From Schmidtea polychroa (lineage: Eukaryota), in contig CM097885.1 in the NCBI GenBank assembly GCA_044892525.1, positions 15,874,001-15,938,000 of the forward strand: a stretch of DNA of 64,000 nt. Reading direction: 5' to 3'. The position numbers and the translations under genes were made by a program. Numbering within the stretch: position 1 is the first letter of the stretch; every line of letters starts with the position of its first letter. Below are positions 1,822 through 26,160 of this stretch, one piece after another. The notes under the pieces are model-generated. The model did not search any database. It saw nothing but the letters and a program-made list of their open reading frames with translations, and had not been told where the DNA came from.

Positions 1822-3418
1822 ATGTTGGCAAGCGTATGGGAAATGATGAAGAGGAAAGAATTTGAATTTGATAATGAAATCAGCAGTGAATTGATATGCA
1901 GAATTTGCAAATGTTTAATGATAAAAGCTTGCCATGCTCCTTGCGTTTGTGGCTTTTGTTCTGATTGCATTGAAAATTATTTGGATGGAAAAGATAAATT
2001 CTGTCCAGGAGCAGCAAAACATTGTAGAAAGAAAATGATCAATTTCAATAAAGATGTTTCTGAAGATCATGCAGCTAATTTAAGGATTTCAGAAGTGGTA
2101 GTGAGATTCCCAATGCAAAATTGTCAATTTAAAGATGAATTAGAGGTGATGGAGAGCCACATGAGAACATGCAACAAGCAACCAATAAAATGTTTATTCA
2201 ATAGAATCGGATGCGAAATGAATGAGGTGGTAAAGGATGAAATGAAAGTCCATCTCATTGAGAACACTGAAGGCCATAGCAAATTATTGATTGATCAGAT
2301 CAGTAATTTGTGCAATGAGATGCAAGCAATGAGAGACGAGAATGTGACATTGTGTAATGAAATTATCAATATCAATGTAAAATTGTATTTGCAATTAATT
2401 TTATTGATATTTAGGATTGGAGGTGAAATTGTGCAATATTGAAAAGAAAGAGGCTGAAAACAGAGAAGATATAGAAGAATTGAATGAGGAAATGGTGGCA
2501 TTGAAGAATGAGAACCGCTCATTGAGAATGGATATGGAGACAAATATTGGATCAATCAATCAGGTTTGATTATTGATTTGATTTGATATTGATATGTTAT
2601 TGATGGAAAGCAGGTCAGACAGCAAATTGAAGTAAATTGAATCAAAATGTCAGCAGCAAATTGATGAGATGAAAGAGAAATGCGAGCAGCGGCTGCAACA
2701 GGTGAATGAAAAGGTGCTTTATTGGTTTTTTGAAATGTTTGAATTTGAGATTCAGTTGCAGTTTGAAATGGCGAAATGTACCTATGAAATTTGGCAGATT
2801 GAAACAAAATGTCAACAGCAAATTGATGAGATGAAAGAGAAATGCGAGCAGCGGCTGCAACAGGTGAATGAAAAGGTGCTTTATTGGTTTTTTGAAATGT
2901 TTGAATTTGAGATTCAGTTGCAGTTTGAAATGGCGAAATGCGCCAATGAAATTCGGCAGATTGAAACAAAATTAGCAAATGAAAAATATGTAAATTACGG
3001 ATTTTTTGAATGGGAAATCGATAAATTTTCACAACAAAAGAGAAGTAAAAATATTTACAACAAAGCGTTTTTTTCCGGACCAATCGGTTACAAAATTTGC
3101 TTGTGGGTGCTGATTGATGGTAATTGGGGTATTGGGGCTGGTTTCTGTTTGATGCGTGGGGCAAATGATGAGCAATTGGATTGGCCGTTCAATCAATCCG
3201 TGACAATCGATGTGATCGATCCAGCAAATGGCAACATTTATATGAGGAAGTCAATGAAATATTCAGATAGCCCTCTTGATGCAGCTGGATGGAGGAAACC
3301 GTCACACGACAGAAATAATTCAATTGGTATTTATTATTATCCTGATGCCAGCTCAATCTATAAATTAGCAGCCAAAAGTAAAAAATTGCTGCTCAGGAGC
3401 AGAATTGAAAAATTATGA
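1822..3418 (+). pseudogene. TRAF-like gene copy 1 (RING, Zn finger, coiled coil, MATH); probably disabled
   Basis: RING (CRICKCLM..APCVCGFCSDC), TRAF Zn fingers and MATH domain (FFSGPIGYKICL, MRGANDEQLDWPF). Relative to copy 2 there is an apparent extra A near 2635, a C->F change (VRFPMQNC) and an altered acceptor near 2420. Confidence 0.75.
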
Positions 3419-9153: not shown

Positions 9154-9471
9154 ATGGATTGTTGTTTGGAAGTAGGTTTTGATGTAATTTTTTATTGAAT
9201 TGATTTTTGATGTATTTTAATTAGAAATTCGAGATTTGAATGGATTGTTTTGTGGTTTAAAAAAGGTAAAATTCTGGAAGGGAGGAAACCAGTTTTGTTT
9301 ATTGAAATAAGTTTTGGAATCGAAATGTTTGAAGAAGAAGATGTTTATTACAAATTTATTAAAGCTTATGATGTTCCAAACCAAGATCTTATTTCTTATT
9401 TCGATGAAACCCGTGAATTCATTGAAAATGGCAGAAAATTTGGTGGAGTATTGGTTCACTGTCTTGCTGGA
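9154..9471 (+). pseudogene. DUSP12/YVH1-like phosphatase copy 1, 5' part, interrupted by the Polinton
   Basis: Near-identical to 25443-25760; ends at VLVHCLAG exactly where the element starts. Confidence 0.9.
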
Positions 9472-10455
9472 AGTAGTGTGGTTATATACCCAACCAAAAC
9501 AGCCCTCCCAACAAAACATGCCTCCAAATCACTTAAGCTATTAGAAAAACAACCTAAAACTTATACTTTTATAGTATTTTAACCCTATATTTTGAAAACA
9601 ACCACCTTTAATGACTCTAACTGTTTTAATCTTTAAAGCCTCAAACTCAAAAGCTTCAAACTAAAACCATAAAGAGAATAGAAAAGAAAATGGTATTATG
9701 AAAAAGTTAGAAGGCTACTTGAGGATGCCAACTAGCAAGTTGCTAATTGGCTAATTAAAAAAAATAAATGAAATCTTAATCTTGATGTCTTGAAGAATAA
9801 AAAATTTTATGAAAATAGTAAAACTGCTCTGAGAGGACAGTGGTATTTTTTTTTTTCACTGTCCTCTCAACAGTTTTTTTGATCCGGATCATTTTTTTTT
9901 TATTCAACCTCTTTCGTTTATCAAATCTCTTCCAATATACAAGCTGGCCAGGCTCATAATCAGAATCAATTCGATAATAGCAGCACACCTTATTATTCGC
10001 TTCTCGCTCGAATACGATTTCATCGGCGTTTTAAGTGTGCTGCTCGAAAGTACAAATGAATTCGAAAGCGAATCCGAAAGAGGTCCGAAAACAACCGAGA
10101 AATAAATGTGCACATTATGGGATCGATCCGGGTGTGTTCGAAAGACTGGTGGCGATAATTACCGGTTCGCCACCACACCCGTTTCAATATTTTTTTTTTC
10201 ATATTTATGTTTAAAAAATAATTAATTAATAAAAAAATAAAATAAAATAAAATATACAAGTACTTTATAAATATAAGATACCCACACTATTTTCAATATT
10301 ATTTTCAAATTTTTAATATTATTTTATGTTGAAAAAAAACTAACCTCAGATGTGATTTGAACCACTATCCATTTGAACCACTGTGCCAGTCTATTCCCAC
10401 TGCGCCATCAAGGTTTGAATTTTTGTCATTTTTTAAATTTTTAATTTATAAAAAA
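9472..10455 (+). repeat. Left terminal inverted repeat
   Basis: Reverse complement of ~23409-24405 with few mismatches; inner boundary approximate. Confidence 0.95.
10332..10415 (-). ncRNA. Candidate Pol III small RNA, variant copy
   Basis: Minus strand: AACCTTGA TGGCGCAGTGG (A box) ... GGTTCAAATC (B box) ... GAGGTTAG T8. The ends are complementary. Confidence 0.5.
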
Positions 10456-10564
10456 ATAAAATAAAATAAAATAAATAAAATAAAATATACAAGTACTTTA
10501 TAAATATAAGATACCCACACTATTTTCAATATTATTTTCAAATTTTTAATATTATTTTATGTTG

Positions 10565-10647
10565 AAAAAAAACTAACCTCAGATGTGATTTGAACCGCTA
10601 GCATTTTGAACCACTGTGTCAGTCTAGCCCACTGCGCCATCAAGGTT
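10565..10647 (-). ncRNA. Candidate Pol III small RNA, second left copy (in a 233-bp tandem duplication)
   Basis: Same A box, B box and T-run; almost identical to the right-TIR copy. Confidence 0.5.
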
Positions 10648-10887
10648 TGGATTTTTGTCATTTTTTAAAATAATCGATTCAAGTTCTTTTATTCTTTCCT
10701 GTAATTGTTTTATTTTATCTAATCTTTTCTCAGCTACTTCTACTGCATTCATGTAAAAATGTCGATACTTTTCATTCTCTACCACCAACTCTTTAATGTA
10801 TTCTAATGGTTCTTCTTCTCTTCTTTTCATTCTCTTAAGTTTAACTTCATTCAATTCATTTCTCATTCTTTCAATAAAGTCAATCAT
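10624..10887 (-). CDS. Small coiled-coil protein of the Polinton
   Basis: 87-aa charged helical ORF with ATG in AAAAATG context, divergent from the capsid gene. Its stop lies inside the candidate ncRNA. Confidence 0.55.
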   Translation of the reverse strand: MIDFIERMRNELNEVKLKRMKRREEEPLEYIKELVVENEKYRHFYMNAVEVAEKRLDKIKQLQERIKELESIILKNDKNPNLDGAVG

Positions 10888-10972
10888 TTTTATAAATTAT
10901 TTTTTTATTGAATTCCCTTTTATTTTTATTTTTTTTTTCAACTTTTATTTTTATCAACTTTTATATATAAAA

Positions 10973-12265
10973 ATGAATAATATAAATCTTAAAATTCAAG
11001 AAAAAAATAAATTAAATCTTGATTATAATAAAGAATTTACTCATGAAATCAAGAAAAATGATGTACTTAAAATCTCTCCAACTTCAGGATCTATTGCAAA
11101 CTTAAATCGTAGGGGTGATATAGTTTTTCAATCTCTTCAAACATCAAACCCAATAGATATTTGTAATGCCAAATTATATTACAAAGTAGAATTAGAAATT
11201 GAAGCAAACAAAGATATAACCCTAGAAAATAATTTCTTTCCAAATTTATTCTCCAACATGAGATTAAAACTAGGATCATCAGAAATTGAAACTGTTTTAC
11301 ATCCAGGAGTATATTCTACAATGTTAAATTTTATTTTGACTGGTTGTGATTATAAAAATGAATATGGTGAATTAACAGGTTGGATTCCTGACACTAATAA
11401 AGGGGATTTAGATAAAGATGGTTTAGATGTAAACCATGGTTACCATAAAAGAGCTGAACTTTATAAATCTAAAAAATTTGAAGGTTATTTTGAATTAAAA
11501 CACTTGTTTGGATTCCTTCAAAACTATAATCGTATACTTCATAATGTTTTTATAGAATTCATCTGTAATAGAGTAGAAGGTGATAAAAGATTGTTCTATG
11601 GAGCTGTAGATACAAAAGCTAAATTAAAATTATCAACACTTGAATTACATATACCTGAATGGACATTAAACCCACATTCTGAAATCAAACTCCTTGAAAG
11701 ATTAAATTCCAACAAGTCTATAAATGTAAATTATTTAAATAGAATCTGTAGTGAATTTAGTATGACAGAGGGTTCAACATATTCTATAAAGGTAGCAAAT
11801 TTTGCATACCGACCAAGATATATCTTGATTGGATTCAAAGAAACAGATTCATCTTTCCAAAAAAATAACAATCTATTTATTCAAAAGATTGGAGATGATA
11901 ATTTAAAAACAATCCAAATTCAATTAAATAGTTCTTATTATCCAATAAATAGAATGGAATTTAATATTGAAAATAATGAAAACATATTCCCATATCTAAA
12001 TTATATTGAAACATGTTATGATTTCAAAGTTGAACCGCAATTAAGTTTAGAAGATTTCAAAAATTTATATTCTATATTTTGTATAAATGTATCAGACCAA
12101 GATGATCGATTAGCCATAAATAATGTTGATGTTACACTTCATGTAACAAAGGATTCTAATTTTAAAGCTAAAGTATATACATTAATATTAGAAGAAAAGA
12201 AAATAGAAATGAAATTATATGGTGGAAAGATTTCAATTATTGAAAATGTTAGGGGAGATTCTTAA
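10973..12265 (+). CDS. Major capsid protein (double jelly-roll, Polinton PY / hexon-like), ~430 aa
   Basis: Motifs TLENNFFPNLFSNMRLKLG, RPRYILIGF, QLNSSYYP and KNLYSIFCINVS are typical of Polinton MCPs. Start taken at the AAAAATG at 10973. Confidence 0.8.
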   Translation: MNNINLKIQEKNKLNLDYNKEFTHEIKKNDVLKISPTSGSIANLNRRGDIVFQSLQTSNPIDICNAKLYYKVELEIEANKDITLENNFFPNLFSNMRLKLGSSEIETVLHPGVYSTMLNFILTGCDYKNEYGELTGWIPDTNKGDLDKDGLDVNHGYHKRAELYKSKKFEGYFELKHLFGFLQNYNRILHNVFIEFICNRVEGDKRLFYGAVDTKAKLKLSTLELHIPEWTLNPHSEIKLLERLNSNKSINVNYLNRICSEFSMTEGSTYSIKVANFAYRPRYILIGFKETDSSFQKNNNLFIQKIGDDNLKTIQIQLNSSYYPINRMEFNIENNENIFPYLNYIETCYDFKVEPQLSLEDFKNLYSIFCINVSDQDDRLAINNVDVTLHVTKDSNFKAKVYTLILEEKKIEMKLYGGKISIIENVRGDS

Positions 12266-12282
12266 TATTTTAACATTTTAAA

Positions 12283-13698
12283 ATGTCTTTAAATAAACCC
12301 TATTGGAGATGTGAAACTTGTAATTGTCAAGTTACAAGACATCATAAAGCAAGTCGTCTTAAAACTAAAAAACATACAGTAGGTGACCTAATTCCACGAG
12401 CTGGAGGCGATTTGCAATCTTCAAAAACAACATCTTCAATATTAAAACCTTTTACTACAGAAAAATATCCAGGTGAAAGACATTTATTTAAACACAACTA
12501 TACTGGACCAGGAACACGTCTAGATATTAGATTAGATGAAAATAATAATCCCAAACAAGGAGAAGAACCAATAAATAGAATTGATCAAACAGCTTTAAAA
12601 CATGACATTGCATACAATTCAACAAATCTTAGAGATAGACATGTTGCAGATGTGAATTTAATACATGATTTAAATAGTATCCAAAATCCATCAACCCAAG
12701 AAAAGATTCAAAGAGCTCTAGTTAAATTAGCAATGAAAGGTAAGATTTTCATAGGCTTAGGACACAGTCCGATCACCATGGGTGCAAGACTTCCTAGGAA
12801 AGCAAAAGATGTTGCTAATAAAAAGATTATTGAACAAGCAGATGCTGAAAGATCCCTCGAGAATATATCCAAGACTAGTTTATTAACCCCAACAGAATCA
12901 CAAATAAAATATGCCAACGAATTACACCATGAATTTAGAAAAAATAAAAAATATTTAAAAGTTCAAGTACATGAAAAAGATCAAACATGGTCTGCAGATT
13001 TAGTCTTTATGCCAACCAAATCATCAGACCCTGAAAAATATAAAATAATTTTAACTGTAATAGATTTATATACAAGATTTGCTTTTGCAAGACGTTTAGA
13101 AAATAAAACAGGATATTCTATTACAGAAGCATTTGAAAATATATTTGAAGAAAATCAAAGAATCCCAAAATATTTATGGTGTGATAAAGGAACAGAATTT
13201 TATAACAAAGTTTTTACAAAGTTTTTAAATGAAAATGATATTAAATTATATTCAACAGAAAACGAAGGAAAAGCAGTCGTAGTTGAAAGATTAAATAGAA
13301 CATTAAAAAATAAAATGTGGAAATATTTTACTGCTATTGGAAAACAAAAATGGAACAATGAATTGTTACAAAAGATTGTAAATGAATATAATAATGATGT
13401 ACATAGTTCTATAAAATTAACACCTTTAAATGCTTCCATGAAGCCTGAAACCATTAAAGTGGTAAATATTGAAAATGATGTTATTGAAAAACTAAAGTTT
13501 AAAATTGGTGACCGAGTAAGAATATTTAAATATAAAAATAAATTTGAAAAAGGATTCACAGCAAAATGGACAAATGAAATTTTTATTATAAATAAAATAC
13601 ATTATACAACTCCAATAACATATAGCATCTTTGATTTAAATAATGAAAAAATATTAGGTAGATTTTATAATAATGAACTACAGAAAACAGATTTTTAA
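12283..13698 (+). CDS. Zn-finger-like + parvovirus-type phospholipase A2 + retroviral-type (rve) integrase fusion
   Basis: N-terminal CETC...KKH; PLA2 motifs NYTGPGT and IDQTALKHDIAY; integrase DDE motifs WSADL, WCDKGTEF, VVERLNRTLK; C-terminal FKIGDRVRI. One uninterrupted frame. Confidence 0.9.
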   Translation: MSLNKPYWRCETCNCQVTRHHKASRLKTKKHTVGDLIPRAGGDLQSSKTTSSILKPFTTEKYPGERHLFKHNYTGPGTRLDIRLDENNNPKQGEEPINRIDQTALKHDIAYNSTNLRDRHVADVNLIHDLNSIQNPSTQEKIQRALVKLAMKGKIFIGLGHSPITMGARLPRKAKDVANKKIIEQADAERSLENISKTSLLTPTESQIKYANELHHEFRKNKKYLKVQVHEKDQTWSADLVFMPTKSSDPEKYKIILTVIDLYTRFAFARRLENKTGYSITEAFENIFEENQRIPKYLWCDKGTEFYNKVFTKFLNENDIKLYSTENEGKAVVVERLNRTLKNKMWKYFTAIGKQKWNNELLQKIVNEYNNDVHSSIKLTPLNASMKPETIKVVNIENDVIEKLKFKIGDRVRIFKYKNKFEKGFTAKWTNEIFIINKIHYTTPITYSIFDLNNEKILGRFYNNELQKTDF

Positions 13699-13709
13699 GT
13701 CGACAAGCC

Positions 13710-14501
13710 CTAAAACAAACTTTTCCATATTTCAGCTTCTTCTCTATCCAAATAAATATAATTATATTTTTCTTTCCAATGATTATCAACAAACATATCA
13801 AACATATTCTTATCAGGTTCAACATTTGAAAATAAATCATTATAAATCATATTCTTATCACGGCGATCTAATTTAAAAAATATAAAACAATTGGAATTAT
13901 TTCTTATTGAATTTTTATCTAAAGCATAATATGTTTGAGATATATAAATAACATTACAATTATTATGTCGACCTCGTGTAAAGTAACTCTTTTGAATCTC
14001 TTGATTTTTCATATTAACAACATCATCAAATATAACTAGATTCTTTTTATCTTTAGGAAGTAAATCACAATGTAAAACATCTTCAGGTTTATTAGAGAAT
14101 AAAACTTGAATTGCCTCCTGCCCTTCTTCACAAATATAATCATTTTTATTACTAATATCTGATTCTAAAATCTTTTCCTTATACCAATCAACCATATCAC
14201 AAGGTTGATAAACTTCTTCAGGACACCTATGTTGATTTTTAAAAATATCAATTATTGCTTTTTTAGTTAATTTATTTTCAAATCCACATTTCAAAAGTTG
14301 TAATTCTGGTTGATTTATGGTTGTAGAATAAAAGATTAAATTATTATAATCTAAAAAATCATCTTCAAGTAACATTCTCAAAACAAGTACATTCTTTCCA
14401 CATCCAGAAGAACCAACAATTAATAATCTAAAATTATCAGGAAATACTTTATTATTAAATTTACTCTTATGTCTATTTAAAATTGGTTTCCAAATATCCA
14501 T
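13710..14501 (-). CDS. A32/FtsK-like genome packaging ATPase
   Basis: Walker A GSSGCGKN, Walker B LVIFDD, TRGRHNNCNVIYISQ, IRNN. Start taken at ATG 14501. Confidence 0.92.
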   Translation of the reverse strand: MDIWKPILNRHKSKFNNKVFPDNFRLLIVGSSGCGKNVLVLRMLLEDDFLDYNNLIFYSTTINQPELQLLKCGFENKLTKKAIIDIFKNQHRCPEEVYQPCDMVDWYKEKILESDISNKNDYICEEGQEAIQVLFSNKPEDVLHCDLLPKDKKNLVIFDDVVNMKNQEIQKSYFTRGRHNNCNVIYISQTYYALDKNSIRNNSNCFIFFKLDRRDKNMIYNDLFSNVEPDKNMFDMFVDNHWKEKYNYIYLDREEAEIWKSLF

Positions 14502-14516
14502 TTTATTTATTATAAA

Positions 14517-15086
14517 ATGACCTCGAAGAGTTCCTCTACTGAAGAATCTTTGCAAGAATTAATAAATTCAAATAAAAATAAATCAGTAGTAATTGATGGT
14601 AAAAAATATTTTATTGGAAAACATGTAAAAGAACAAGTTAGAGCGAAGCTCCACGAAGCTAAAGAAGGTGGCATTCTTCCATTAGCTGCTTTAATACCTG
14701 CAATCATTGCTGGTTTATCAGGTGCTGCTGGAATAGCTGGAGGAATTGCAACTACAGTTCAAAAAGCTAAAGAATCTCAAAAGACAGACCTAGAAAAAGA
14801 AAAACTACAAACTGAAATCGATTCAATGAAGAAGGTAAGGCAAGCTAAAGGGGGAGTGTCCGTTGGAAAGGGTCTCTATCTTAATCCATATGAGGGGAGT
14901 CGGCAAAAGTCTCAGGGCAAAGGTCTCTATCTAAATGATTTTTTAAAAAATCAAATTTCTACATCTGAATCTTTATCTTCAAAAGATAAAGAAGATTTAA
15001 AAAAGATATGTAAATCTTTAAAGAATGGATGCCTTTGTAAAACTAAAAATGGTAAAGGATTATACTTGAAGCCCTTCGAACTATGA
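14517..15086 (+). CDS. Virion core protein with adenovirus pX-like hydrophobic segment
   Basis: GGILPLAALIPAIIAGLSGAAGIAGG resembles adenovirus pX (GGILPLLIPLIAAAIGAVPGIA). Three GKGLYL repeats. Confidence 0.65.
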   Translation: MTSKSSSTEESLQELINSNKNKSVVIDGKKYFIGKHVKEQVRAKLHEAKEGGILPLAALIPAIIAGLSGAAGIAGGIATTVQKAKESQKTDLEKEKLQTEIDSMKKVRQAKGGVSVGKGLYLNPYEGSRQKSQGKGLYLNDFLKNQISTSESLSSKDKEDLKKICKSLKNGCLCKTKNGKGLYLKPFEL

Positions 15087-15108
15087 TACCATTTTTGATA
15101 CCATTAAA

Positions 15109-15990
15109 ATGGTATATGAAGAAAGATTAGCACTTTTAAAAAAATTACAATCAGAACAAGATAAATATAATAAAAAAGATACAACTCAACATGCTGAATC
15201 TATAATATTAAATGAGGTAATAACACAACAACAGGGGCCAACAATTAAAGCTATAAAAGAGTTGGAAGATTTCAATGAGCAAGCAAAATTTAAAGAGTTA
15301 GAAGATAAAAAACAAAAAATAAAAGAACTAGAGTGGCAGGATAAAGAAAAAGAATCCAGTGAAAACCATCCTGAAAGAAATCAAAGAAAACGCAGAAGAA
15401 TTTCTAATGTGGAAGAAGAAGAAATGTTTTTAAAAACAAAACCTCTTAAAGTTGATCCTAAAATTAGAGATGATTTACCTCCTTCAATTAGACCCACATT
15501 TAATACTAATACTGAAGGATATCAAATAATAACAATTAATAAACAAAACTTTACTTTATATTCAAATTCAGAAAATAAATCACGTATTCATTCACAAAAT
15601 GTTTATAATAATGAATATTTAGACTTTGAATTTACAGATGATTTTTATAGATTACTTTGTGGATATTCTTCAGATGATGTTGAAGAAATTAAAAAATATT
15701 TAAATTTAATAAGATTAATAAGAGCTAGTTCTAAAGCAAAATATATTCAAGATTTAAAGAATTATTTAAATAAAAATGAAAAGGGTTATGTTGTTACAGA
15801 GGGAGAGGGATTAATTAGTGAAGGTGGTAAACCAAATCCCATCAATCTTTTTATTGAATTAAGAAAACTATTAGCTGCAAGGAAAGCAGGACATAATAAT
15901 TTAGATTCTGATATTTTAAAGATTTCTAAAGATTTGTTAAAACAAGGAATAATTTCAAAAGATAAATTTAATAAGTATACGAAGTTATAA
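15109..15990 (+). CDS. Uncharacterised Polinton protein (293 aa)
   Basis: Long ORF in the structural block. The C-terminal NPINLFIELRKLLAARKAGHNN..GIIS resembles a motif I recall from Maverick-associated proteins. Confidence 0.65.
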   Translation: MVYEERLALLKKLQSEQDKYNKKDTTQHAESIILNEVITQQQGPTIKAIKELEDFNEQAKFKELEDKKQKIKELEWQDKEKESSENHPERNQRKRRRISNVEEEEMFLKTKPLKVDPKIRDDLPPSIRPTFNTNTEGYQIITINKQNFTLYSNSENKSRIHSQNVYNNEYLDFEFTDDFYRLLCGYSSDDVEEIKKYLNLIRLIRASSKAKYIQDLKNYLNKNEKGYVVTEGEGLISEGGKPNPINLFIELRKLLAARKAGHNNLDSDILKISKDLLKQGIISKDKFNKYTKL

Positions 15991-16012
15991 ATACGAAGTT
16001 TTAAAATACAAA

Positions 16013-16477
16013 ATGACTCCTTCAATATTAGATTTTTTAAAAACATTTGGAATAAATGCAAAAACAAATTTTGATTTAAAAGATTATGCAAATTATTTAA
16101 ATTTAAAAATTAAAATATTAATGAATGATGAATTATCAAGTCTGGAGAGTCCCCTGAATATAATAATCAATTATCAAAATTCAAATGAAAAAGGATCTCA
16201 TTGGGTTTGTATATATAAGAAATCTATCTACTTTGATTCTTTTGGGATTAAACCTACTAAAGAAGTTGAAGATTATCTCTTGAGGGGTTCTCCGATTGAT
16301 TCCCCAAATGGTTATACTTTTAACTCTTTACAAGTTCAACCTTTGAATACTAAAATATGTGGTATTTTAAGTTTATATGTTTTGTATAGATTGAATAAGG
16401 GAGAGGGAAAGGGGCATACGCAGGATTTTAAATCTATAATTCAAGAAATTTATAATGATCTAGAATCTCTACTATAA
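16013..16477 (+). CDS. Adenain-like cysteine maturation protease
   Basis: GSHWVC (His), YFDSFG (Asp), QVQ and ICG (Cys) in the order of Polinton/adenovirus proteases. Confidence 0.92.
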   Translation: MTPSILDFLKTFGINAKTNFDLKDYANYLNLKIKILMNDELSSLESPLNIIINYQNSNEKGSHWVCIYKKSIYFDSFGIKPTKEVEDYLLRGSPIDSPNGYTFNSLQVQPLNTKICGILSLYVLYRLNKGEGKGHTQDFKSIIQEIYNDLESLL

Positions 16478-16525
16478 GGATTTTTACTATAAGGATTTTT
16501 ACTATATGAATTTACTACTAAAGAA

Positions 16526-17290
16526 ATGGAGCTTCACAACCCTCCGGAAGATAATTTAAAAAAAATGGTAAACATAATGTCAGATAAATATTCAAGAACT
16601 TTATCTATAAATTCAAAAGAATCAGACTTTACTATAAACTTTCAAGATTCAATTAAATTAGATCAAAATTTAAATTATGAATTGGGGCTATTATGGTTTT
16701 GTGCTTATAATACTATTTTTAATATAACTAAAGATAATAATAAATTTACTATTCAAACTCGTGATGGGCATAAACCAGAAATTATAACAATAGAACCTGG
16801 GGCATATGAGATAAAAGATTTAAATGATATACTTTCTAAAAAATCAAATGAAGGTATTAAAATTAAAATGGATATACCAACTTCAAAATGTGTAATGACT
16901 TTGAAGAATATAAAAATTAGTTTTTTAGATAATTGTTTCTTTCACACAGTTTTAGGATTTAAACCTATGGATATAACAATAAAAGAAGATAAAATAATAA
17001 CATCAGAACATATTATAAAAATAATAAATACAAACACAATAAATATTCATTGCGATTGTATAACAGGTTCTTATAATAATGGTAAACAAACAAATGTTTT
17101 ATATTCCTTTCCCTCAAACACAGTTCCTATGGGATATAAAATAGTTGAAAGAATGAATCCTCCAAATTATTTACCTTTATGTAGAAAATATATAATGGAT
17201 ATTAATTTTAAAATTCTTAATCAAGAAGGAGAATTGATTGATTTTAATGGAGAAGAGATTTCAATGTATTTACATTTGAAACAGGTTTGA
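16526..17290 (+). CDS. Minor capsid protein (penton, single jelly-roll)
   Basis: IEPGAYEIKDLN, VLGF, INIHCDCITGSY.NG..TNVLYSF, YLPL, NQEGELIDFNGE. Start codon uncertain. Confidence 0.82.
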   Translation: MELHNPPEDNLKKMVNIMSDKYSRTLSINSKESDFTINFQDSIKLDQNLNYELGLLWFCAYNTIFNITKDNNKFTIQTRDGHKPEIITIEPGAYEIKDLNDILSKKSNEGIKIKMDIPTSKCVMTLKNIKISFLDNCFFHTVLGFKPMDITIKEDKIITSEHIIKIINTNTINIHCDCITGSYNNGKQTNVLYSFPSNTVPMGYKIVERMNPPNYLPLCRKYIMDINFKILNQEGELIDFNGEEISMYLHLKQV

Positions 17291-17314
17291 AGATTCATTT
17301 TAAATTATTAATAA

Positions 17315-18325
17315 ATGAGTTCTTATATTCCATGTAATAGAGGTGGTGGAACAATAAAAACAGGGTTTAATACAGAAGAAATATTAACTTTAACAGAAAA
17401 TAAATATATTAATGAAAGAGGTGATTCAATGAAGGGTGATTTAATTTTAAATGGACACAAGATAAAAGAATTATCTTTTCCAACTGATGAAGCTGATGCA
17501 GTTAATAAGAAATATGTAGATGGTGTTAAAAAATATACTGATTTAACAACAACAAGAATTGAAAGTTCATTAACAACAAAAATTGATTCAATGGAATCAA
17601 AGCTTAATAATATCGAACAACGATTTAATGATAAATTTGACAAGTTACAAAGTCTGTTAACTGAACAAGTTGTAAAGTTAAATACTGCTATATTAAATTC
17701 TAAAGATAAACAAATTATGAATACTAAATTTAATACAATATATAAAATAATAAATGAGATGATTACATCATTTAATAAAAGAATTTCAAATTTAGAGTCT
17801 CATGGAACACACATTAACACCACACATAGTATTAGAAAAAGAGCTGCTGAATTAGAACAGAATAAAACATTATTACCCCATACATATAAACATTTTATAG
17901 AACCAAGTTTAATAACAACAAACAGTAAAGAATGGGGTGTTTTTATGGTTGTAAAGATTATTGATCCTTATTTCTTTTTGTTTGATGATGATAATGAAAG
18001 AATGAAATGGTTTGTGAAATGTGATTATAATAGTAAGCTTGAAAAGGGTGATGTTATAATGACTAGTTATGATTTACCACACGGAGATTGGTATGTTAAT
18101 ACTCATTCAAATGGACTACATAAAGTTAAAAGTAAGAATATTATTTTTAAAAGCACACTTGTACAATATATAGATTTAATATTTTATGAAAAAAAGGTTG
18201 ATGTTGATGAAGTTCGTAAAGCATTGAGAGAATTGTATAAAGATATCCTCTCAACAAGAGTTTCTTTTGATATCCGAGTATTGGTGCCAGATGGTGCTCA
18301 GAAGAATAAAGTCTTATTTTTTTAA
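17315..18325 (+). CDS. Putative fibre/receptor-binding protein
   Basis: GDSMKGDLILNGHKIKELSFPTDEADAVNKKYVD matches a fibre-type motif. It is followed by a coiled coil and a globular C-terminus, and lies directly after the penton gene. Confidence 0.55.
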   Translation: MSSYIPCNRGGGTIKTGFNTEEILTLTENKYINERGDSMKGDLILNGHKIKELSFPTDEADAVNKKYVDGVKKYTDLTTTRIESSLTTKIDSMESKLNNIEQRFNDKFDKLQSLLTEQVVKLNTAILNSKDKQIMNTKFNTIYKIINEMITSFNKRISNLESHGTHINTTHSIRKRAAELEQNKTLLPHTYKHFIEPSLITTNSKEWGVFMVVKIIDPYFFLFDDDNERMKWFVKCDYNSKLEKGDVIMTSYDLPHGDWYVNTHSNGLHKVKSKNIIFKSTLVQYIDLIFYEKKVDVDEVRKALRELYKDILSTRVSFDIRVLVPDGAQKNKVLFF

Positions 18326-18333
18326 TTATTAAA

Positions 18334-18930
18334 ATGGAAGAAGTAAGAGAAGAAAAAATTTACCCAGAATTGAGATCATCAGGATATTATTCTTCCAAGG
18401 CCTCGGCTCCCACAGAACTTGAAATTATGAGAGTAAAAGAATTTAAATCAGAAACCTTACATTTACAAGATTTATTAAAGCATTATAAAAAAATTAAAAA
18501 TAGATGGAATAAAGGGAATACAGTTTTAAAAGTTATAGGTTATTCTTTAGGATTTGCATCTGCAATATTAACAGTTATTTTACCCATAACTTTACCAGTT
18601 GTTACTCTTGCACCTGTAATACTTGGAAGTATTTCTGTGGCTGATGGTTTCTTAACTGAAATAGTTTCATTATCTTATACTTCTAAAAAGAAAAGTTTAT
18701 ATAGAGAAGTTTGTTTATCAATAGAATTAGGAATCTCTAAATTATTTTTATTTCAATTAAAAGCTTTGGAAGATGGAATCCTGACAGACGAAGAAATAAT
18801 GAAATCAAATCAAATAATACAAGATATAAAGAATGAGGTTATAAGATTAAAAAGGGAGGGCATGGTGGCTAATGTTATAAGTAATAAAAAAACATCTCGA
18901 GAAAAATGGTTAAAGAATTCTTATTTATAA
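18334..18930 (+). CDS. Two-helix membrane protein (adintovirus 'GasderminX'-like)
   Basis: IYPEL..SAP, central hydrophobic hairpin, KALEDGILTDEE. Family assignment is from recalled motifs. Confidence 0.55.
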   Translation: MEEVREEKIYPELRSSGYYSSKASAPTELEIMRVKEFKSETLHLQDLLKHYKKIKNRWNKGNTVLKVIGYSLGFASAILTVILPITLPVVTLAPVILGSISVADGFLTEIVSLSYTSKKKSLYREVCLSIELGISKLFLFQLKALEDGILTDEEIMKSNQIIQDIKNEVIRLKREGMVANVISNKKTSREKWLKNSYL

Positions 18931-19024
18931 AATGGGTTTATTTTTAAAAAAGTAGATCAGGTTGCTATAGTTGCTTAAATTAATTGTCGACATTTTATTA
19001 TTAAAAAATTAAATATCGTTGGTT

Positions 19025-22000
19025 TCAGTTATGGTTGAAAGCCAACCTTTGAATCATTAATTTATGATCTTTAAATTCTTTATCACTTAGACCTTTTATA
19101 TATTCAGGATCAGTATTAAAATATTTAAGTTCTAAACATATAGGATTAAAAACTTGAGAATATAAAGGCTTCTCGATTTCTCTCTTGGGATAAATAATTT
19201 CAACATTATAAATATCAAGATCAGTAATCTTTGTATCATATAACTTATTCAACTTTTCTAGATTTTTTATTATAGGGATTAAATTATTTCCAATAGGTAG
19301 AGTTGTCTTTAAATCACTTAGTATGAATCTCTTATCATCATAATTTGATAATGATACTTTTTGAGATTCTATCAAGTGAATATCATGGTTTTCACTTTTA
19401 AGTTGATGTATTTCATCAATTTTATCTTTATGATTTGGATTCAATGCATCTATATAATCTTGATGAGAAAGATTCTTTGCAACCACTCTCGGTATTCCTT
19501 TACATCTGTTATCCTTTACAGGTTTTTCTTCTTGTCCCTCTGGTCCTTTAGGAAATATAGGATATCTATGTGTAATGGTTTCTTCTGTTTCTGGAGTTTT
19601 AAATATAAATGATCTAGTTATAAATTCAGGGTTTCTAAATGTTTCGTATGAATATTGTTTAGCACGAATAAATATTCCATTTTCTATAGGAGTAAAAGGT
19701 TTTTCATCTTTAAACGAAAATAGTTCTCCAGTTGAATTTATTAAATTTGAAAGTATAGGATTTTCAGCTATATCTCTTTGTAAATCATGAGTTCTTATTG
19801 TTAAAAACATTGAATCTGTATCCATTGCATGCATTGATATATTAGAACCATATATAGGTTGTAAGATGTTATAATATGTTTCATACATTTGTAATTTTGA
19901 AAGTTCTAAAATTGAAAACCCTATAAATATTGGTTTGTTGTATGTTTTCTCAAAACTCTTTAGTTCTATTGCAGTAAGACTTTCAGAAAATACTTGTGCG
20001 TTTTTAAATGTAGGCTTTCCTAGCATACGATTATAACGCTTAATATCTTTGGCAGTATTAGTTAGGAGTTCAATATGAGTATATTTATCAACATTCTCCA
20101 TTGTCTTCCCAAAGACTGAATTGTTTAAAAGTTTATAATTATTATCTTTAAAAAGGTTACCTTCTCTTTTTGCAATGTTTCGACACCTAATGTTCTCCTC
20201 GATAAAAGCTTTCATGAATGGAGCTTGTTTAAATCTTATGACACTATGAACTTTTTTTAATATCATTCCTCGTGAGAGATAAAATTGGAGGAGTCTATAG
20301 TGACAAAGATAAAACCTTCGATCTGTTTGATCACAAAGAAGTTTCATTGTTGGAGGTTTATCTTGTGAGATTTGCCATTCAGAAAGTTCGTTGATATCAA
20401 TCTTTCTTCTTATGGGAGCTAAAGGAAAATATCTTGTTCCTGATTTTATATCATCTGGATAGTCGAGGTCACATTCTATAAAGTAACCTATTGGAAAATC
20501 TTTCGACGTTGAAAGTATTTCTTTCATAAGGTCATCTGTTGGGTTCTCTATTCCAGTGAAATCACTCATTGGTAAATATTGAGTCATAATTCCTGAATAT
20601 AAAGCTGTTGCATCTATATAAAGTATAAATATAGGATTTTTCATTGTTTCTAATAATTCTTTTAATTCCTCATTGTTAATTTTCATATATGGATCATCAG
20701 GGTGTTTAGAGAGTCTTCGGCTAGTAGTTATTGCATTTCTAGCTTTTATTTCTCTATTCCCCATTACTGAAGAGACTCCTCCTCTAATGTTTGTTTTAAT
20801 TTGGTTAAACATATCGAGGTTAGTTAAAAGATCTATAATTTTATCAGCATCTTCTATATTTGAAGTCCAAATGGTATATAACATAGTATCCCAAGCTAAA
20901 GAGGGTGCAGTTATATAATTATAAGGTTTAAGAACAAAAGAGTTTGTAAATTCTTCAAAGCAATCTGCTAGAATATAAACATCTAAGGATAAATACATGT
21001 TGGTATATTCTCCTAAAGTTTTACACTTGAATAATTCCCACATTTTTAATGCTCGAGAATATTCTTGATCTGTAATCCCTGATTGTAGTAAGTTTGAAAA
21101 GAAATCTTCTTTGTTAGGAAGACTTGTTTCATTATATCTTTCAAACGAGTCAACATAGTCATAAGGATATATTTCCTTTTGCTAAACATGTAGGATATTC
21201 TTCTAGAGGAATATTATTTTTTTCCAAGAATTCTCGAGTGATTTTAAAATTTTCTGGTTTCATTGTTTTTGCTACTGCATCTAAAGACATTTGGAGAAAG
21301 TTTAACGAGTCTATAAATTTTAATTTTCCATATTCAATTGATTTATATTTTTCCTTTGTTAAGCCGATAACTTTGAAAGAGTTTTTAGCATTTGCTGCGA
21401 GGTGTTTAATAAATAGATGTATGTCATATCCAAAAAGATTATGAAATATAACAGGTATAAATTTAGGAGTATGACAATTAAGATTGCAATTTTTATGAGC
21501 TGCTCCTCGATAATTATTTTCCTTTTTTAAATGATCATGATCTATAACTTTTTCATCAGGAAGAATATTCTGTTTACACATCCAACAGTTGGAAGTATTT
21601 TCATATTCTTGTTGTTGTTGATTAGAAATATTTTTGAGGATACTTTGTTTTTAATATTTTAAATATTTCATGTTCTAGATCATTTATATTTTTAGTAAAA
21701 TGATTCAAGACTTCTGTTTCTGAAATTCCTCGAAATGTATATTCTCTAGATTCTATGAGTTCAGGATAATTACTTTTAAATAATAATTTATAAGCAGATG
21801 GTAATTGTTTAGTTTTTTTAACACTATTAGGTTTATTTCTTTTTCTTAGAAAGGCTTTCATCCTCTCTGGTTTCATCTTCTCTCCTGAGGAGTTCCAGGA
21901 ATCCATGAGTTTATTTTTTTCTATTATTTTTAAATATTGATAAACCAAATCTTGTTTATGGTTTATAGATTCAAAGTCACCATAAAGAACTCCAACTGTT

Positions 22001-23381
22001 TGTAGTAAATTTGAAAAGTTTTTAAAATATATCTTGGGATTATTAGGCATTTTAATTAAAGCTGGATCATCTTTTTCACAAAGTCTTGTATGTTTAATCA
22101 TAGAGTTTTAGTTGTTGAATAATGAAGACATCTTTTACATGTTCCTCCTCCACTAGTTGGATTCTCTGGTGATGTAAAAGCTTGAAAGTTTTTTATTAAA
22201 ACATAATATTGATTATTTTGTTGTTCCAAGATTAAAAGATATATCTCCCTAGTGTTATCCTGCGGTTCGTTATCTCTAACTTCATAATCTGAAATATAAA
22301 TTGGAATAATTTCTCTGCTATTAACATGTTTCCCTTTAACACGTTCATAAATATTAATTTTAAGATTATTTAAACTTTCAAATTTTGGAATGTCTTCTAG
22401 TTTCATTGGATGTTTGAATCCTTTGGGAAATATTAATTCATTTTCATATTGTTTGTATTTTGAAACTCTTTGGGGATTTGTTGCTTGAGGATGTAAATGT
22501 GCAAATATTGACCAGATGAAACATTTGTTATCATTATTCTGTACATTTATAACATTTTTAGATTTAAAGGGTGTAGGAATATAAGATTTAGGATTGGGTG
22601 GTAATCTTCTCCAATAATCAATCACTAAAGTTTGGAAAGAGTTGAATACTAAGTTTGAATCTCCTAATTCATTTTCTACTTCCTCTTGTTTTGCTTCTGC
22701 TGCTTTAATTATTTCTTTGATGGTTTTATCAAATCCTTTAATTGAAAATAAATATTTAAAAGGTATTCCAATTTCAACATCTAAGGGTGTTGTCTTTTCT
22801 TCTGCTCCTCGCCAGTATTTTGCTTTGATTATAATTTTATATTTTATAACATTATACCTTGTCGGTTTATAATTTTTTAAAGCTTCAGTGAAAGAATTTT
22901 TAATATTTTTTTTATTTTTATTTATATATTCTCCAGGAGTTGCAGGCCCATTAATTTTTAATTGAAATTCATCTATATGATTAAAATTATCCCAGTTATA
23001 TTTTTCTCTTTCAACATGATCAGGTTCTCCTTCTGAATGACATTCCTCATCGTCAGAATTTTGTTTTTTATTTTTACATTCTTTTATATCTTCTAAATAA
23101 TAGAAATTTAGTTTTGTTGAAAAGTTACAATGAGGACATGTAAATATTTCTCTATTTTTCCCGATACAATTTTCAAAATGTTTATTATATCCAGAAAATA
23201 GAAATCTTCCTTTACATTTAAGACAAAGTTTTGAATTTGTATCATTAAGATTATTTTCTTTTAATAAATGAGCTTTCGATTTTAAGTGAGAAATTAATCC
23301 AGTTTTATTTTTAAAAACTTTATTGCAAATATTACAATTCATTTTTAGAAAAAAAATTTTTATTGGATACCCTGTTTTCAT
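19025..23381 (-). pseudogene. Protein-primed family B DNA polymerase (~1440 aa), split by three 1-nt indels
   Basis: N-terminal Zn fingers, NVQNNDNKCFIWS, YGDFES, FHNLFGYD, FIDS, KG(I)YPYDY, YIDATALY, KLLNNSVFGK, DTDS, DDKR. Frame changes near 22107, 21633 and 21173, each in an A run. Confidence 0.93.
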
Positions 23382-23408
23382 TTTATTTTTTAAGATTTAT
23401 ATTATTCA

Positions 23409-24405
23409 TTTTTTATAATAAAAATTTAAAAAATGACAAAAAATCCAAACCTTGATGGCGCAGTGGGCTAGACTGACACAGTGGTTCAAAATGCTAGCGG
23501 TTCAAATCACATTTGAGGTTAGTTTTTTTTTCAACATAAAATAATATTAAAAATTTGAAAATAATATTGAAAATAGTGTGGGTATCTTATATTTATAAAG
23601 TACTTGTATATTTTATTTTATTTACTTTATTTTATTTTATTTTTTTATTAATTAATTATTTTTTAAACATAAATATGAAAAAAAAAATATTGAAACGGGT
23701 GTGGTGGCGAACCGGTAATTATCGCCACCAGTCTTTCGAACACACCCGGATCGATCCCATAATGTGCACATTTATTTCTCGGTTGTTTTCGGACCTCTTT
23801 CGGATTCGCTTTCGAATTCATTTGTACTTTCGAGCAGCACACTTAAAACGCCGATGAAATCGTATTCGAGCGAGAAGCGAATAATAAGGTGTGCTGCTAT
23901 TATCGAATTGATTCTGATTATGAGCCTGGCCAGCTTGTATATTGGAAGAGATTTGATAAACGAAAGAGGTTGAATAAAAAAAAAATGATCCAGATCAAAA
24001 AAACTGTTGAGAGGACAGTGAAAAAAAAAAAAATACCACTGTCCTCTCAGAGCAGTTTTACTATTTTCATAAAATTTTTTATTCTTCAAGACATCAAGAT
24101 TAAGATTTCATTTATTTTTTTTAATTAGCCAATTAGCAACTTGCTAGTTGGCATCCTCAAGTAGCCTTCTAACTTTTTCATAATACCATTTTCTTTTCTA
24201 TTCTCTTTATGGTTTTAGTTTGAAGCTTTTGAGTTTGAGGCTTTAAAGATTAAAACAGTTAGAGTCATTAAGGGTGGTTGTTTTCAAAATTTAGGGTTAA
24301 AATACTATAAAAGTATAAGTTTTAGGTTGTTTTTCTAAGCTTAAGTGATTTGGAGGCATGTTTTGTTGGGAGGGCTGTTTTGGTTGGGTATATAACCACA
24401 CTACT
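23409..24405 (-). repeat. Right terminal inverted repeat
   Basis: Mirror of 9472-10455; ends CACACTACT. Confidence 0.95.
23448..23531 (+). ncRNA. Candidate Pol III small RNA, right-TIR copy
   Basis: A box TGGCGCAGTGG 23456-23466, B box GGTTCAAATC 23499-23508, T9 at 23523-23531, terminal stem AACCTTGA/TTGAGGTT. Confidence 0.55.
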
Positions 24406-24505
24406 GCTGGAAGATCAAGAAGTGGAATTATTTTGACGGCTTATTTAATGAAACATTTTAAAGTTGGTCCAAACGATGCGATTGAGACAATTAAGGAAAA
24501 GTCAT
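24406..24505 (+). pseudogene. DUSP12-like copy 1, 3' remnant
   Basis: Resumes AGRSRSGIILTAYLMKHF identical to copy 2, then breaks off at 24505. Confidence 0.9.
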
Positions 24506-25318
24506 AGAATAGGAATAGAGCAAAATCGAGTCAATGAGAACGAGAATAATTATTCTGAATTTGTAAAAAGTAATACTGAACTATTAGACAAAGCTTTTGA
24601 TAAAGGAGACCAAGTTACAGCAGATGAGTTAGAAAATATTGTCAAAAGTCACAATCAAGAAGAAAATTTTGAAAGTAAATATGATGAAACTGAAGTAGAT
24701 GTGTCAGACAAGAATGAAAATTATAATAGTCATGTAGGCACAGAGGTTGTCGACATTAATGTTATCGAAAGACCGAATTCTTTGGTAGAAGATAATTTTC
24801 AAAACATGGAAGACGTAGTTAATGTTCAAACGGATTCTGCTTCTTCAGAAAATCATTTAGAAACTGATCGAATTATGCCAGATTCTGAGAGCAATGACAG
24901 TGATCTTAGAGTCGATATTGGTAAAGATCATACATCCGACACAGCTAAAGATTCTGAACAAAATACATTCACTCAACCAACGTCTGCTTTAGATGATATC
25001 ATTGAAGACTATTCACCTGGTTCCCCTTTATTAAATGAGATGCAACAGGGAAAAGTGGGGACTATTGAATTGGTGAAACATGCAGGAAGGATAATGGAGA
25101 TATTGCAGCGAAACAGAATGAAAAGTGGCAGGGGCTTGGTCGAGTATGGCGATGGTGGGAGGAGAATCCACCATGATGTATCCAGAAAGGTGCGTGGTGC
25201 GGCGGCCTATACCATAGCAAGATGGGTGTGTGAGGGGTATTGGAGAGAGGCAAAAGGAAAGGTTCCCCTGAAGTAATTGGGTGTTTGATCCGCTAGAAGG
25301 GATCAAGGAGGGGGGAAA
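24506..25318 (+). other. Acidic open frame followed by a polypurine tract; possible 3' end of an LTR element
   Basis: Stop-free to 25276, then AAGGAGGGGGGAAA immediately before TGTTTCG. Confidence 0.3.
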
Positions 25319-25442: not shown

Positions 25443-26160
25443 ATGGATTGTTGTTTGGAAGTAGGTTTTGATGTAATTTTTTATTGAATTGATTTTTGAT
25501 GTATTTTAATTAGAAATTCGAGATTTGAATGGATTGTTTTGTGGTTTAAAAAAGTTAAAATTCTGGAAGGGAGGAAACCAGTTTTGTTTATTGAAATAAG
25601 TTTTGGAATCGAAATGTTTGAAGAAGAAGATGTTGATTACAAATTTATTAAAGCTTATGATGTTCCAAACCAAGATCTTATTTCTTATTTCGATGAAACC
25701 CGTGAATTCATTGAAAATGGCAGAAAATTTGGTGGAGTATTGGTTCACTGTCTTGCTGGAAGATCAAGAAGTGGAATTATTTTGACGGCTTATTTAATGA
25801 AACATTTTAAAGTTGGTCCAAACGATGCGATTGAGACAATTAAGGAAAAGTCATTTATATGTCCAAATGATGGATTCATGAAACAATTAAAGATATATTT
25901 CAACATGAATATCAGTGATGAAATCAACAAATGCGCAAATACAGTTTCTCAAGCTCAATTTAAGTTATCAGCATCTTCAAAAGATTTAGTTCAATTCAAA
26001 TGTAGAAAGTGTCGATTTTTATTATTCGACAATTCAAGTGTTGTTGAGCACAGTAAAATGAAAGCTTCGAAAGCAATAAATGAAAGCACAATTTGCAATG
26101 AGGAAATACTTATCGAAGCTCTTCCTTGGAATGATAGCAGCAATGCAGACGGGGAAATGA
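25443..26160 (+). CDS. DUSP12: DUSP12/YVH1-like dual-specificity phosphatase copy 2; C-terminal Zn domain incomplete
   Basis: VLVHCLAGRSRS, AYLM, PNDGFMKQL, then FKCRKCRFLLF..EH..C..IEALPW. The later Cys clusters are not seen and the 5' structure is uncertain. Confidence 0.7.

Follow-up and report, generated by a model that had tools for sequence, protein, structure and literature searches.

A phospholipase A2–integrase fusion in a high-copy Polinton of Schmidtea polychroa: a probable packaged precursor with candidate protease sites on both sides of the lipase

This analysis concerned a 64,000-nucleotide stretch of the Schmidtea polychroa genome (the window, to which all coordinates refer), in which a complete Polinton/Maverick of the adintovirus type occupies positions 9472..24405. 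The element is 14,934 bp long with 5'-AGTAGT termini, is flanked by a perfect target-site duplication of 6 bp (GCTGGA; left 9466..9471 on the plus strand, right 24406-24411), and ends in terminal inverted repeats (TIRs) with arms of about 1.0–1.2 kb (left 9472..10671, right about 23424-24405), the longest segments of which are 99% complementary. The hallmarks of Polintons/Mavericks are all present, namely the TIRs, the short target-site duplication, an rve-type DDE integrase and a protein-primed DNA polymerase (PolB), as are a double jelly-roll (DJR) major capsid protein, an A32 ATPase and a cysteine protease. The insertion splits an exon of a dual-specificity phosphatase at its catalytic motif (flanks 9325-9471 and 24406-24510), and an uninterrupted, near-identical copy of the phosphatase (25614-25900; Pfam DSPc) lies some 1.2 kb downstream of the element. 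Further upstream, an ORF at 2669-3418 encodes a TRAF/MATH domain and a coiled-coil segment that is repeated in tandem.

From the left terminus, the genes of the element begin with a plus-strand ORF identified by Pfam and by a motif census (10796..12265; PF21738, E 2e-26), followed by the ORF that is the subject of this study (12283..13698, plus strand, 471 aa) and, on the minus strand, an A32-like packaging ATPase (13710..14501; PF04665). Next is a stand-alone, protein-X-like core protein (14517..15086, plus strand), recognized by the motif census and by a weak Adeno_PX match under the Pfam cut-off (E 0.038). It carries GG-ILP and three GKGL repeats (GKGL-YL), its domain is the one joined to phospholipase A2 (PLA2) in classical PLA2X proteins, and, judging by its sequence, its product is likely to be a heavily processed core protein; ORFs resembling it are present in the related elements L062 and L063. 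A cysteine protease of clan CE (16013..16477, plus strand; adenain/pS273R-like) precedes a putative minor capsid (penton) protein (16526..17290, plus strand), which has homologues in related elements and no Pfam match, and which owes its label to comparison by eye with penton sequences. The protein-primed polymerase region (19025..23381, minus strand; PF03175) is a single ORF of 1,294–1,320 aa in L062 and L063. In the window copy it is broken into four ORF pieces, and for this reason the copy is probably non-autonomous, though young (TIRs about 99% alike).

The first-pass annotation had described a PLA2 and an integrase in a single frame, and this was confirmed: the 471-aa frame is free of stops, and both Phospholip_A2_4 (PF08398; aa 67–148, E 1.2e-8) and rve (aa 230–323, E 1.2e-11) score above the Pfam cut-offs. 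It opens with a variable leader bearing a C2H2-like zinc-finger motif (aa 8–31; 12304..12375). Here the earlier description of a zinc-finger-like N-terminus needed qualifying: the finger has the form CxxC...H...H, and its third-position His, which 28 of the 35 distinct intact copies have, is lacking from the window copy; the finger is missing from most distant homologues, and its Cys residues occur in 19–20 of 121 aligned rows. The parvovirus-type PLA2 domain (aa 43–158; 12409..12756), defined by PF08398, conservation and pN/pS, has the sequence motifs expected of this family, with the Ca-binding YxGPG loop (YTGPG, aa 73–77) and the catalytic HD (H107-D108, within HDIAY, aa 107–111), both noted earlier, along with Y111 and D123. 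After a length-variable linker (aa 161–208; 12763..12906), for which the spacer in homologues ranges from 10 to 80 aa, comes a retrovirus-like integrase with a C-terminal beta domain (12907..13695; Pfam rve, Foldseek), complete as had been claimed (D239, D301, E335). Pfam gave no chromodomain (PF00385) match to this integrase, and a chromodomain is present in some fused homologues.

Two short glycine motifs bound the lipase, and their sequences are as first described: RAGG-D at aa 39–43, containing candidate cleavage site 1 (G41-G42|D43; 12403..12411), and FIGLG-H at aa 156–161, containing candidate site 2 (G158-L159|G160; 12754..12762), which closes the last helix of the PLA2 domain. Both were delimited from conservation and a structural model, and cleavage at them is predicted. 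An AlphaFold2 model of the fusion, built on a 78-row alignment (pLDDT 86, pTM 0.57), predicts both domains with confidence and falls below pLDDT 50 at aa 35–42 and 160–171, so that low-confidence linkers coincide with both candidate sites; helix 138–158 ends with G158 as its last residue. In Foldseek searches, the modelled integrase resembled that of the foamy-virus intasome (E 1e-15) and a MELD-virus integrase, and single-sequence searches of the PDB gave weak matches or none. The ORF is under purifying selection: among the 35 distinct intact copies, which are related to one another, pairwise pN/pS rises from 0.23 (PLA2 domain) and 0.34 (integrase) to 0.46 (leader) and 0.71 (linker). Of the 121 rows, 114 retain H107/D108 and 120–121 the DDE residues.

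Conservation of the fusion in sister elements had been put forward as a check, and it holds, since 85 of the 90 best-scoring copies in the same genome (781 Mb) have no stop across the ORF. All 90 scored matches, the best of 9,837 candidates, span the ORF at 96–100% identity. Because such a search favours intact copies, a second one used the PLA2 family alone; 24 of the 30 loci read have an integrase downstream, two have none nearby and four are other PLA2 genes, and the breaks seen in the 24 fall in scattered places with no single conserved split. The other PLA2 genes (L054, L055, L031 and L032; 39–44% identity, no integrase nearby) include two in open frames of more than 600 aa, which may be endogenous genes of parvovirus-like or other viral origin. 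Beyond this genome, 107 of 120 listed homologues (the best 120 of 993) have both Pfam domains at 37–89% identity, including one from the coral Oculina, and three ESM Atlas clusters (184, 111 and 72 members; scores 0.83–0.86, taken as leads only) have both families in 78–100% of their members. A one-off or artefactual fusion is ruled out by the own-genome copies and the listed homologues. PLA2 scans of viral contigs and a pattern search with the integrase N-terminus gave no match. Contigs from three runs guessed to be RNA have no splice-like joint; together with those of a fourth run, of uncertain kind, they weigh neither way on expression.

The first-pass annotation had taken commonness of the fusion among known Polintons as counting against its reading, and the fusion did largely prove to be common. 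It is a common trait of the lineage and had already been named: Adinto15303 and Adinto6405 are labelled 'PLA2-Integrase' in supplementary file 2 of the 2024 preprint of Buck et al. (PMC11071296), two of the 59 PLA2 entries listed there, beside PLA2X-Adenain and other fusions. In both, the domain order is that of the window ORF and GG and GxG are visible, and in the available parts of that preprint the fusion stands as a FASTA label alone. The bare fusion is not new, since databases and one preprint supplement already contain it. In the parts available of PMC8502044, PMC5803895, PMC3671162, PMC11296320 and 10.64898/2026.06.19.733378, PLA2 appears as a separate Polinton gene. The adintovirus-type Polintons (Polintoviricetes) with PLA2X described by Starrett et al. 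(2021; PMC8502044) share core genes, terminal repeats and the parvovirus-type PLA2 with the window element, and a GxG trails the PLA2 domain in both, but here PLA2 is joined to the integrase, protein X is a separate ORF and a chromodomain is absent. Accordingly, the ORF lacks the C-terminal protein-X domain that defines a PLA2X gene, the protein-X-like segment lying in 14517-15086. The definition of adintoviruses in PMC11071296, as far as the accessible text goes, includes a C-terminal chromodomain on the integrase, which this element does not have, and a PolB whose N-terminus carries an OTU-like domain. The PLA2 of the parvovirus VP1 unique region shares PF08398 and the YxGPG and HD motifs, but is tethered to a capsid protein and not to an integrase.

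Stand-alone PLA2 proteins also occur among the relatives. The closest outside the family (P0122-P0124; 65–73% identity) end 1–5 residues past the invariant Gly, as either a split or a frameshift could produce, and a divergent group (L123, L133, L137, L139, L142, L147-L150 and L154) has a C-terminal hydrophobic helix without GxG, with the integrase, where seen, about 2.5 kb away. PLA2 and integrase are fully separate genes in L064, L065, L086 and L092, and therefore the fusion is not required. On a quick PLA2 tree, the labels fused and stand-alone switch several times, with at least four changes forced for 'alone'. This switching, and the varied partners to which PLA2 is joined in the preprint supplement (PLA2X-Adenain, Adintoc3-PLA2X), would suit a simple compaction of neighbouring genes that has no role in packaging, an explanation that must also read the frame differences described below as decay or as assembly errors in A-runs, and which we consider improbable on the evidence given there.

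The first-pass annotation had matched both boundary motifs to the adenain consensus, and in this respect it was not upheld: the P4 residues are R and F. Strict adenain sites, (M/I/L)xGG|x or (M/I/L)xGx|G, were rejected for the family as a whole, as P4 is M, I or L at the first site in just 6 of 72 rows and at the second in 8 of 92. The motifs instead follow the rule of the virophage mavirus (Born et al. 2018, PMC6048507), the protease of which cleaves GG|X and GX|G; both window motifs have this form in exposed segments, and the second cut, formerly placed after G160, would fall between L159 and G160. GG stands ahead of the D motif in 72 of the 88 rows that have a leader (16 are without it), and GxG comes directly after the PLA2 domain's end in 92 of 114, the other 22 linkers having GG in some cases and GAS- or GQA-like endings in others. 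G158 is retained in 120 of 121 rows. As judged from these alignments, the boundary glycine motifs are more than a chance feature, because the integrase parts of the 114 rows (29,254 residues) are nearly devoid of them (just 6 GxG and 5 GG) while G158 is near-invariant. They are kept where the flanking linkers vary, sometimes with the motif duplicated, and several subfamilies in the same genome (L040, L045, L046, L052, L056 and L057) have expanded leaders with several GG, or linkers with duplicated GxG. The protein-X-like ORF contains the same glycine motifs six times, and the capsid protein has them near its C-terminus; the motif census found none in the putative penton. The protease appears intact, with H63, D75, Q109 and C116 invariant in 36 of 36 rows, profile matches to pS273R (E 0.0025) and adenain (E 0.07), and a modelled fold resembling clan-CE proteases.

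Natural protein ends coincide with the predicted cuts. Of 38 stand-alone PLA2 proteins, 22 end no more than 5 residues from the invariant Gly, and in 13 homologues the starting Met stands at the D motif or no more than 5 residues before it. This cuts both ways for cleavage. G158 may be structural, given that in the model it ends a helix and that stand-alone PLA2s which end 1–5 residues on, and so have next to nothing that could be cut away, keep it too. One could then suppose that the PLA2–integrase junction is never cut and that the product works as a tethered two-domain enzyme, with the Gly serving as a helix cap and with processing at the N-terminal GG or nowhere; the flexible linker, at most 80 aa long, would suit such an enzyme. 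That seems unlikely on present evidence, as the second motif alternates between GG and GxG, i.e. both mavirus cleavage types, has been duplicated in certain own-genome linkers (e.g., L045), and recurs between PLA2 and protein X in L065, a classical PLA2X. A processed virion polyprotein is still the best reading, and it is supported by the conservation of the motifs, the low-confidence linkers at both sites, the intact clan-CE protease and the mavirus precedent. The earlier interpretation, of a packaged polyprotein coupling entry and integration, is in this sense partly supported overall.

The junction was also compared among relatives, including a sister clade. Classification of 84 loci (the best 80 of 121 from metagenomes and 4 of 15 viral contigs) gave 20 fused in frame, 29 with the integrase directly downstream in another frame and 14 in which the integrase is not next; the rest have too little flank (12), run off the contig end (7) or have a stop within PLA2 (2). 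Two of the 29 (L086 and L092) are genuinely split, each having a Met of its own. The remaining 27 comprise 24 in the −1 frame and 3 in +1, and together with three in-frame loci they form a clade of 30 rows on a quick tree (SH-aLRT 99). The −1 loci are 47–99% identical and fall into 20 clusters at 90% identity; because the loci compared in this analysis are related, counts of them are not independent. GG-D is retained in 21 of the 22 that have a leader. The integrase of the −1 loci is in that frame just past the GxG motif and, in 22 of the 24, its frame has no Met ahead of the first catalytic Asp. Slippery heptamers were taken from the canonical list. An in-phase heptamer of the type X XXY YYZ, which canonical −1 frameshifting calls for together with an overlapping −1 frame, lies within 60 nt of the GxG codons in 20 of the 24 −1 loci, against 2 of 19 in-frame loci (L104, in which the HD-x-x-Y match is absent, was left out of the comparison). 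Synonymous resampling (1,000 replicates) gave a mean of 8.8 and a maximum of 16 heptamer loci. In 18 of the 24 the heptamers stand in open −1 frame, close to the junction in 17 and far from it in one.

These observations bear on whether the −1 state is merely decay of a compacted gene pair or a fault of assembly. Three loci are in +1, and a one-base loss in an A-run likewise yields a −1 frame; L131, L140 and L116, which are related, have runs of A8, A9 and A10 and three different frames. Against this, the bias is 24 to 3 over the 20 clusters, the heptamers exceed the resampled expectation, and the A-runs involved are as short as 6. A premature stop interrupts only 5 of the 24 integrase frames, so that the shifts are concentrated at the short junction, and without a shift the complete integrase of the −1 elements would have no start. 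It could also be argued that the precursor is real and that polymerase slippage on an A/T run, or splicing, gives rise to it in the sister clade instead of ribosomal frameshifting. The A8–A10 runs with varying frame at several junctions would fit slippage, as would the lack of a 3' stimulator: pseudoknot-free folding found no RNA structure after the heptamers (mean z 0.08 in 18 windows versus −0.07 in controls). We regard this as very improbable, since the dominant heptamers are A AAA AAC/G and T TTA AAA, in phase and with A6–A7 runs, and since a pyrimidine tract is not evident at the A-rich junctions, contrary to splicing. The −1 frame, the absence of Met and the slippery heptamers make it likely, as far as sequence can tell, that a joined protein is made, in frame or via frameshifting, and then processed, in a Gag-Pol-like packaging of the integrase.

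Retroviral Gag-Pol carries its integrase at the C-terminus of a precursor of virion proteins, from which the viral protease frees it. The likeness lies in the C-terminal integrase and, in the sister clade, the −1 slippery heptamers; it is one of analogy and not of membership, as we deal here with a dsDNA virus that has a separately encoded cysteine protease, a lipase as the carrier and no stimulator that could be found. Mavirus shares the clan-CE protease and the rve integrase. Its virions contain this integrase along with a predicted lipase, which is present as two fragments separated by a candidate GK|G site (PMC6048507, as far as available); the two enzymes come from separate genes there, and the mavirus lipase is an alpha/beta hydrolase. 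For the parvovirus-type PLA2 of Polintons, a role in entry was itself inferred by published work (PMC8502044, PMC4642659). The accessible parts of PMC11071296 propose −1 slips for Penton and Hexon-Adenain only, and include Adinto13074, which has a PLA2X and an integrase starting at a Met past the position of the first catalytic Asp, with no link to frameshifting made. The literature covered holds no statement on processing or frameshifting of PLA2–integrase, including what was available of PMC11131425, PMC11161782, PMC10675110, 10.1101/2023.08.22.554363 and 10.64898/2026.10.13.758929; Repbase, subscription papers, figure-only maps and bioRxiv supplements lay outside its scope and could describe it. 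What is new is the frameshift-linked sister clade together with the conserved processing motifs, which make a Gag-Pol-like mechanism testable.

Taken together, the ORF of this high-copy Polinton is an in-frame PLA2–integrase fusion and probably a precursor that is packaged and cut at the glycines flanking the lipase by the element's own protease. The PLA2 part would act as a core or entry protein carrying the integrase into the capsid, where maturation cleavage would occur at G42|D43 and L159|G160; the freed lipase would serve endosomal escape and the freed integrase would act on the incoming genome. In the sister clade, a −1 slip after GxG would yield free PLA2 and a lesser amount of PLA2–integrase, as with Gag and Gag-Pol, and in the in-frame lineages, the window element among them, lipase and integrase would be made 1:1. 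The chances seem even that a large group of Polintons has evolved a Gag-Pol-like strategy independently of retroviruses, making its integrase solely at the C-terminal end of a virion lipase, from which the maturation protease would release it within the particle; on this reading the extension is in frame in some lineages and −1 frameshifted in others. How the integrase of Polintons enters a new cell, and whether these elements move as particles at all, has long been an open question, and a lipase–integrase precursor with defined candidate cuts, along with a frameshift-linked version of it, offers concrete tests at the bench. If the proposal is correct, many annotated Polinton integrases with an internal Met start would be mis-annotated truncations, and a DNA virus would have converged on the solution of retroviral Gag-Pol.
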